This document shows, one piece after another, positions 28,994 through 29,412 of a stretch of DNA of 64,000 nucleotides. The DNA lies in assembly GCF_003334355.1 (NCBI RefSeq), contig NZ_QOWP01000005.1. The stretch is one strand, 5' to 3'. The notes beneath the pieces were generated by a model. The model had not been told where the DNA came from. It worked only from the letters and a program-made list of their open reading frames with translations, and did not search any database. The number at the start of each line of letters is the position of its first letter. Within the stretch, counting starts at the first letter, position 1. The position numbers and the translations under genes are program-made. Origin of the DNA: Escherichia coli (lineage in GTDB: Bacteria > Pseudomonadota > Gammaproteobacteria > Enterobacterales > Enterobacteriaceae).

Positions 28994-29182
28994 GATACAA
29001 CAAAGCCGGGAATTACCCGGCTTTGTTATGGAATAAGGCGGTGCCTAACTCGACGTTTCGCCCGATGGTTGATATAGCTACGCTGATATCAGAAGTTGGA
29101 CGGCAGGCACCTTGTTGTGCGTCATTCGAATTTTATGTAGCACGTCCCGAAGGGGCTGACATAAGTCGGTGAATGAGCCACT
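28994..29182 (-). ncRNA. glmY: Small RNA GlmY
   Basis: Reverse complement begins AGTGGCTCATTCACCGACTTATGTCAGCCCCTTCGGGACG... and ends in the hairpin AACAAAGCCGGGTAATTCCCGGCTTTGTT followed by a U-run; matches the GlmY sequence I recall. Confidence 0.85.
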
Positions 29183-29191
29183 GCTTACTAT

Positions 29192-29209
29192 TATGCAGTA
29201 ACTGTGCCA
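29192..29209 (-). promoter_or_regulatory. Sigma54 (-24/-12) promoter of glmY
   Basis: Minus strand TGGCAC-agtta-cTGCAT ending about 10 nt upstream of the GlmY 5' end. Confidence 0.8.
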
Positions 29210-29298
29210 ATAAAGAAAATAGTTTGGTAACGTACTGATTATACGTTGCTTTGAGGGATTTATGGCTTCTTCGCTATTTGAATGTAAATCAGCCACTG

Positions 29299-29412
29299 TG
29301 TCGCTAAAAAGAGACAACTTAAGATAAACTTATTAGATTACAATAAAATCAATCATTTAAGTGTCGCCAGAAAGCGACACGGTAAACCACCCATTGTCGT
29401 GATTTACAGACA
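29299..29412 (-). promoter_or_regulatory. Three TGTC-N10-GACA boxes (candidate GlrR binding sites) upstream of glmY
   Basis: Boxes at 29299-29316, 29362-29379 and 29395-29412, about 117 to 230 bp upstream of the glmY 5' end. Confidence 0.75.

Follow-up and report, generated by a model that had tools for sequence, protein, structure and literature searches.

The small RNA gene glmY and its known control elements in the glrK-purL gap of a 64-kb Escherichia coli sequence

What, if anything, is encoded in the 575 bp that separate glrK from purL? The gap (positions 28941-29515 of the 64-kb stretch of E. coli chromosomal DNA analysed, hereafter the window) is bounded by the TTG start codon of glrK at 28940 and the stop codon of purL at 29516, and an initial annotation, made from the sequence alone, claimed that it is not empty. 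We find that it indeed holds glmY. GlmY controls the synthesis of cell-envelope precursors via RapZ, GlmZ and glmS, and is tied to virulence via QseE/QseF. The identity, the positions, the conservation and the synteny of the elements described below are established here, and we are almost certain that the locus represents E. coli glmY with its complete published control region; it is not just a GlmY-like gene but E. coli glmY itself.

The minus strand from 29182 reads AGTGGCTCATTCACC, which is the RNA start given in the initial annotation, and the covariance-model search for the GlmY/tke1 family that had been suggested as a check returned a full-length match: GlmY_tke1 (Rfam RF00128) aligns with 29182..29035 on the minus strand at 147.1 bits (E = 8e-33; gathering score 33 bits), spanning model positions 1-163 of 163. 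The 184 nt of the primary transcript, from +1 at 29182 to 28999 (minus strand), are identical to the K-12 ncRNA glmY (b4441) at 183 of 184 positions and fold with a minimum free energy of -64.2 kcal/mol (z = -5.5). At nt 54 (29129), in an internal loop, the window carries U and K-12 carries A; U is also the state in most other genera among the matches listed in our cross-genus comparison. As the primary RNA of K-12 is 184 nt long and its active form 148 nt (PMC4152352), the processed GlmY with the two 5' stem-loop domains that mimic GlmZ would occupy 29035..29182 (minus strand; the RF00128 match), its 3' processing site here being a predicted one. Each of 5,426 complete genomes of E. coli carries the purL-glrK intergenic region as a single copy, and the gap is 100% identical to that of E. 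coli strain 600468, in which the neighbouring kinase is annotated as QseE/GlrK. Two mechanically called open reading frames, of 79 aa (29078-29317, minus strand) and 76 aa (28942-29172, plus strand), share sequence with glmY; we rejected both because no CDS is annotated there in K-12 or in strain 600468 and because the RNA gene accounts for the conservation.

In the PGAP annotations of E. coli in RefSeq (records H1-H12, strain 600468 among them) the purL-glrK gap (28941-29515) carries no feature, and among the records compared the glmY ncRNA is annotated in the curated K-12 record only. Small RNA genes of this kind are thus invisible in most annotated genomes. Elsewhere in the window, other Rfam families also matched above their gathering scores: AsrC, antisense of rseC (44866-45697, plus strand), the rncO leader (41869-42083, minus strand), the ohsC antitoxin sRNA (38380-38456, plus strand), naRNA4 (292-363, minus strand) and ES036 (52164-52206, minus strand).

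The initial annotation extended the feature to 28994 and ended the RNA in a strong hairpin terminator. The annotated 3' end of K-12 glmY corresponds to 28999 instead. The hairpin is present and strong, a 12-bp stem with a 5-nt loop at 28999..29027 (minus strand, running from 29027 to 28999) of -20.2 kcal/mol, whereas the U-run that follows it is interrupted (UUUGUUGUAUCU) and the glmY 3' hairpin was not called by a generic terminator scan. Only 58 nt lie between the 3' end of glmY and the start codon of glrK. At the other side of the gap, the intrinsic terminator of purL (29418..29439, minus strand) consists of an 8-bp GC-rich stem and TTTTTT, the T-run abutting the most distal GlrR site, ABS1. 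Just 3' of the purL stop codon we find a REP-like imperfect palindrome (29450-29503) with 24-nt arms and the core GCCGGATGCGGC / GCCGCATCCGGG. The gap measures 575 bp in the window compared to 557 bp in K-12 because 18 bp of this palindrome (29466-29483) are absent in K-12; these extra 18 bp, next to purL, are outside the glmY control region.

Directly upstream of the RNA, the proposed -24/-12 element TGGCAC-N5-cTGCAT is found at 29193..29209 (minus strand, -27 to -11), with TGGCAC at 29209..29204 and cTGCAT at 29198..29193, and is identical to that of K-12. Its core, TGGCACagttaCTGCAT, places GG at -26/-25 and GC at -14/-13 and carries one mismatch to the consensus, a sigma-54 promoter being defined here by GG and GC at a distance of 10 bp within TGGCAC-N5-TTGCW, 11-14 bp before +1. 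The bare pattern, allowing up to one mismatch, is not enriched in the 64-kb window (4 found, 3.68 expected); hence we do not use it by itself as statistical evidence and give weight to position, conservation and published ChIP-seq. In a genome-wide sigma-54 ChIP-seq study of E. coli the glmY peak is among the strongest, with the motif TTGGCACAGTTACTGCA (PMC4591121), and this motif equals positions 29210..29194 of the window letter for letter. In K-12, a sigma-70 promoter with the -10 hexamer CATAAT overlaps the -12 element and shares its start nucleotide (PMC3045617). CATAAT is present in the window at 29190..29195 (minus strand, -13 to -8), its function being known from K-12 (PMC3045617). A generic sigma-70 scan of 28900-29560 called no site, and glmY has no consensus -35 there, so that the sigma-70 component rests on CATAAT and on the published mutagenesis of K-12; the literature likewise describes it as a weak promoter and speaks of no more than "putative -35 sequences" (PMC3045617, PMC6075780). 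Every defining feature of the locus that sequence can test was found, except a recognisable -35 of this weak promoter. Near the start site, at -2 (29184), the window has G and K-12 has C.

Further upstream lie the three palindromes TGTC-N10-GACA that had been placed at 29299, 29362 and 29395. All three are exact and identical to K-12, where they are known as ABS3, ABS2 and ABS1, respectively: ABS3 (TGTCTCTTTTTAGCGACA, 29299..29316, -134 to -117), ABS2 (TGTCGCTTTCTGGCGACA, 29362..29379, -197 to -180) and ABS1 (TGTCTGTAAATCACGACA, 29395..29412, -230 to -213). They are the only exact TGTC-N10-GACA sequences in the 64-kb window, compared to 0.72 expected from shuffles, and the probability that some 114-bp segment of the window would hold three exact boxes by chance is about 1e-7. 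GlrR was shown to activate the sigma-54 promoter by binding three such motifs, located upstream of glmY at a distance of more than 100 bp; the three are unequal in K-12, ABS2 and ABS3 being essential and ABS1 dispensable and less conserved (PMC3045617). Two IHF-like sites flank ABS3 in K-12, the distal one being essential for sigma-54 activity (PMC3045617), and two predicted IHF sites flank ABS3 in the window. Site 1, the distal one (AATCAATCATTTA, 29347..29359, plus strand, -177 to -165), and site 2, the proximal one (AATCAGTACGTTA, 29228..29240, minus strand, -58 to -46), at which IHF would bind, both match the consensus WATCARNNNNTTR exactly; this consensus occurs seven times in the 64 kb, and the two that flank ABS3 are counted here by consensus match only. 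Transcription of glmY in K-12 requires rpoN, glrR and IHF (PMC3045617), and the corresponding elements are identical in the window.

The initial annotation further assigned the sRNA to the GlrK/GlrR-GlmY circuit, encoded beside its own two-component regulator, and family models, near-identity to K-12, conservation across genera and the literature all bear this out. All the neighbours lie on the minus strand. Directly downstream of glmY are glrK/qseE (27513..28940, TTG start), encoding a sensor kinase that is identical to K-12 GlrK at 473 of 475 residues (99.6%); qseG (26635..27348), encoding a lipoprotein (NCBIfam NF007997, 359 bits, cutoff 234); and glrR/qseF (25311..26645), encoding the sigma-54-dependent response regulator that is the activator for ABS1-3 (NCBIfam NF011695 GlrR, 980 bits, cutoff 763). 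The upstream neighbour is purL (29516..33403; NCBIfam NF003672, 2274 bits, cutoff 783). GlrK departs from K-12 by W4C (28929-28931) and H119N (28584-28586), codon 4 lying in the N-terminal region before the first transmembrane segment; both changes are probably neutral. The second published sigma-54 target of QseF/GlrR is rpoE (PMC6075780). Upstream of rpoE in the window (ATG at 47872, minus strand; 47873-48500 searched) the 590 bp before the ATG contain no TGTC-N10-GACA, even with one mismatch allowed, and a strict filter gave no canonical -24/-12 core. Two loose TGT-N12-ACA matches (48273-48256 and 48199-48182), spaced by 74 bp, are all that the region shows.

Is this architecture peculiar to the window? 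We retrieved GlmY loci by a pattern internal to the RNA, GCTCATTCA-N(50-80)-GGTGCCT, searched over 298 Gb, so that promoter content was not pre-selected; the resulting sample is arbitrary rather than exhaustive, yet unbiased in this respect. The pattern was too loose, as about 100 of the loci listed, out of at least 120 in total, were chance matches in unrelated phyla. Of 21 Enterobacterales loci listed, one (L051) had no Rfam match and one (L056) fell outside the Rfam scan, leaving among the matches listed 19 Rfam-confirmed GlmY loci from about 14 other enterobacterial genera (114-160 bits), or 20 with the window. Among these 20 listed loci, TGGCA-N6-nTGC is found at -26 to -28 in every case. 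ABS2 and ABS3 are 63 bp apart, start to start, in 19 of the 20 (the window included) and 62 bp apart in one, ABS1 and ABS2 being spaced by 31-33 bp. In the loci listed, exact boxes number 37 in the 4.0 kb upstream of glmY and 4 in the remaining 197 kb, an enrichment of about 450-fold. In 12 of the 20 listed loci, an exact IHF consensus of the same orientation lies 20 bp past the start of ABS2. CATAAT at -13 is found in 11 of the 20, a distribution that broadly agrees with the genera in which Göpel et al. reported an overlapping sigma-70 promoter (PMC3045617). The order purL-glmY-glrK(-qseG-glrR) is kept in all 19 other loci listed, wherever the fetched flanks reach. The RNA itself was examined by RNAalifold over the 20 sequences (about 15 genera), which gave 43 consensus pairs. 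Compensatory double changes, one or more per pair, occur in 13 of these; most of the remaining pairs are invariant and hence uninformative on covariation either way.

The distance from the ABS3 centre to the GG of the -24 element varies by genus, from about 98-99 bp in the Escherichia, Citrobacter and Enterobacter group through 105.5 bp in Erwinia and Acerihabitans and about 117 bp in Serratia, Photorhabdus and Providencia to 136.5 bp in Morganella. These distances show no common helical phase across genera (for example L089, L057, L061, L017, L120, L063 and L121). It is unlikely, in our estimation, that anything new lies here, be it that ABS2, IHF site 1 and ABS3 act as a rigid module (63 bp in 19 of the 20 loci, IHF fixed at +20) at a genus-variable distance from the -24 element, or that the -2 G or U54 variant measurably alters GlmY output. 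If true, either would add only a detail to a system already known.

The locus of Escherichia albertii NBRC 107761 (L039, 8920-9952) stands apart. Its GlmY is near-identical to that of E. coli, and its PurL and GlrK share 98% and 96% of their amino acids, respectively. The ~300 bp upstream of its glmY cannot be recognisably aligned with E. coli (window 29183-29515), and none of its three GlrR boxes is intact, all being degenerate (TGTC..GACG in two, AGTC..GACG in the third). Between purL and glmY lie 1034 bp, compared to 336 bp in the window, and the promoter core is closer in look to that of Pluralibacter. These features suggest that the glmY regulatory region of E. albertii was replaced or recombined.

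Protein binding, the dependence of transcription on the promoters, RNA processing and the decoy action on RapZ would be expected to hold in this strain as described in the literature on the identical K-12 sequence. We propose that GlrR/QseF, phosphorylated by GlrK/QseE with the aid of the lipoprotein QseG, would bind the three TGTC-N10-GACA sites between -230 and -117, and that IHF, at the sites flanking ABS3, would bend the DNA so that GlrR may drive sigma-54 RNA polymerase to form the open complex at TGGCAC-N5-cTGCAT and to start transcription at 29182. The weak sigma-70 promoter, whose -10 CATAAT overlaps the -12 element, would provide basal transcription from the same start. The 184-nt transcript, presumably ending at the hairpin, would be trimmed to 148 nt, and this GlmY is predicted to mimic GlmZ and thereby to sequester RapZ, the RNase E adaptor. 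In K-12 the 148-nt GlmY accumulates when glucosamine-6-phosphate is scarce and sequesters RapZ via GlmZ mimicry; as a result, GlmZ is spared and activates glmS translation (PMC4152352).

Three other readings of the locus deserve consideration, and only one of them carries any weight. Readthrough of a weak terminator could make glmY the first gene of a glmY-qseE-qseG-qseF operon, in which GlrR would autoregulate its own genes. The interrupted U-tract, the negative terminator scan and the 58 nt between the glmY 3' end and the glrK start codon all point in this direction, and such an operon is reported in Proteus mirabilis (PMC8745638). Yet the hairpin is very stable (-20 kcal/mol). The window and K-12 do not differ between the glmY terminator and the glrK start codon, and in K-12 qseEGF is served by a sigma-70 promoter of its own, with the start 25 bp before qseE, and lacks transcriptional autoregulation (PMC6075780). 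That start corresponds to about 28965 in the window. We regard the operon as unlikely; even if it existed, it would alter only the boundaries of the transcripts and not the identity of the locus.

It could also be argued that the palindromes and the -24/-12 match are non-functional in this strain and that GlmY is made from sigma-70 only, as GlmZ is in E. coli, considering that the bare sigma-54 pattern occurs at chance frequency in the window and that, according to Göpel et al., glmZ of Escherichia gradually lost sigma-54 control to sigma-70 (PMC3045617). Against this, the elements are identical to those of K-12, where ABS2, ABS3, IHF and sigma-54 are required (PMC3045617), one of the strongest sigma-54 ChIP-seq peaks falls on exactly the glmY motif (PMC4591121), the position and spacing of the elements are conserved in about 14 genera among the matches listed, and an intact glrR adjoins, which leaves a sigma-70-only glmY highly improbable. 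Equally, as GlmZ shares both its Rfam clan (CL00011) and its 5' stem-loops with GlmY, one could ask whether the RNA of the window represents this paralog, or a GlmZ-like sRNA that acts by base-pairing, instead of the decoy. However, Rfam clan competition left GlmY (147 bits) at the window locus, the identity to K-12 glmY is 183/184, the interval between purL and glrK is the conserved glmY position (loci listed; PMC6075780), and E. coli glmZ has neither a sigma-54 promoter nor GlrR sites (PMC3045617), and the probability that we give to GlmZ is close to nil. We conclude that the RNA is GlmY, presumably transcribed under the control elements described above.

The initial annotation judged the locus to be known biology, and correctly so: all of its elements are already published, and the window adds nothing beyond the published K-12 work. 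Its reading was incomplete rather than wrong, as it left out the overlapping sigma-70 promoter, the two IHF sites and the processing from 184 to 148 nt, as well as the sigma-70 promoter from which qseEGF is transcribed separately and the differing importance of ABS1-3. The value of the locus is one of calibration, in that a full sRNA gene, an alternative-sigma promoter and its enhancer sites can be read from raw sequence.

The glmY gene of E. coli K-12 and its promoter region were reportedly described by Reichenbach et al. in 2009. The promoter region of this gene (b4441; formerly sroF/tke1) was the subject of Göpel et al. 2011 (PMC3045617), and the window shares with K-12 ABS1, ABS2, ABS3, the -24/-12 element, CATAAT, the terminator and the glmY-glrK spacer, as well as purL upstream and glrK-qseG-glrR downstream of glmY. 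Besides the variants noted above, a few substitutions fall in the spacer DNA from the boxes to the promoter, and IHF site 1 differs only at the degenerate N4 positions. GlmZ (Rfam RF00083, in the same clan as GlmY) has homologous 5' and central stem-loops, the surface of the RapZ-binding mimicry, and glmZ of Yersinia and Salmonella has the same layout of three GlrR sites, IHF sites and a sigma-54 promoter (PMC3045617). Yet GlmZ base-pairs with glmS whereas GlmY does not (PMC4152352), and E. coli glmZ has a sigma-70 promoter only and does not adjoin glrK (PMC3045617). On a wider scale, the locus resembles the classical promoters served by sigma-54 and an enhancer-binding protein, such as glnAp2 with NtrC and nifH with NifA, in its several dyad sites for the activator, located over 100 bp upstream, its IHF bend between enhancer and promoter and its GG/GC -24/-12 core. 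Unlike in these systems, the product of glmY is a small RNA, and its sigma-54 promoter is overlapped by a sigma-70 promoter with the same start, an arrangement that was called unusual when first described (PMC3045617).
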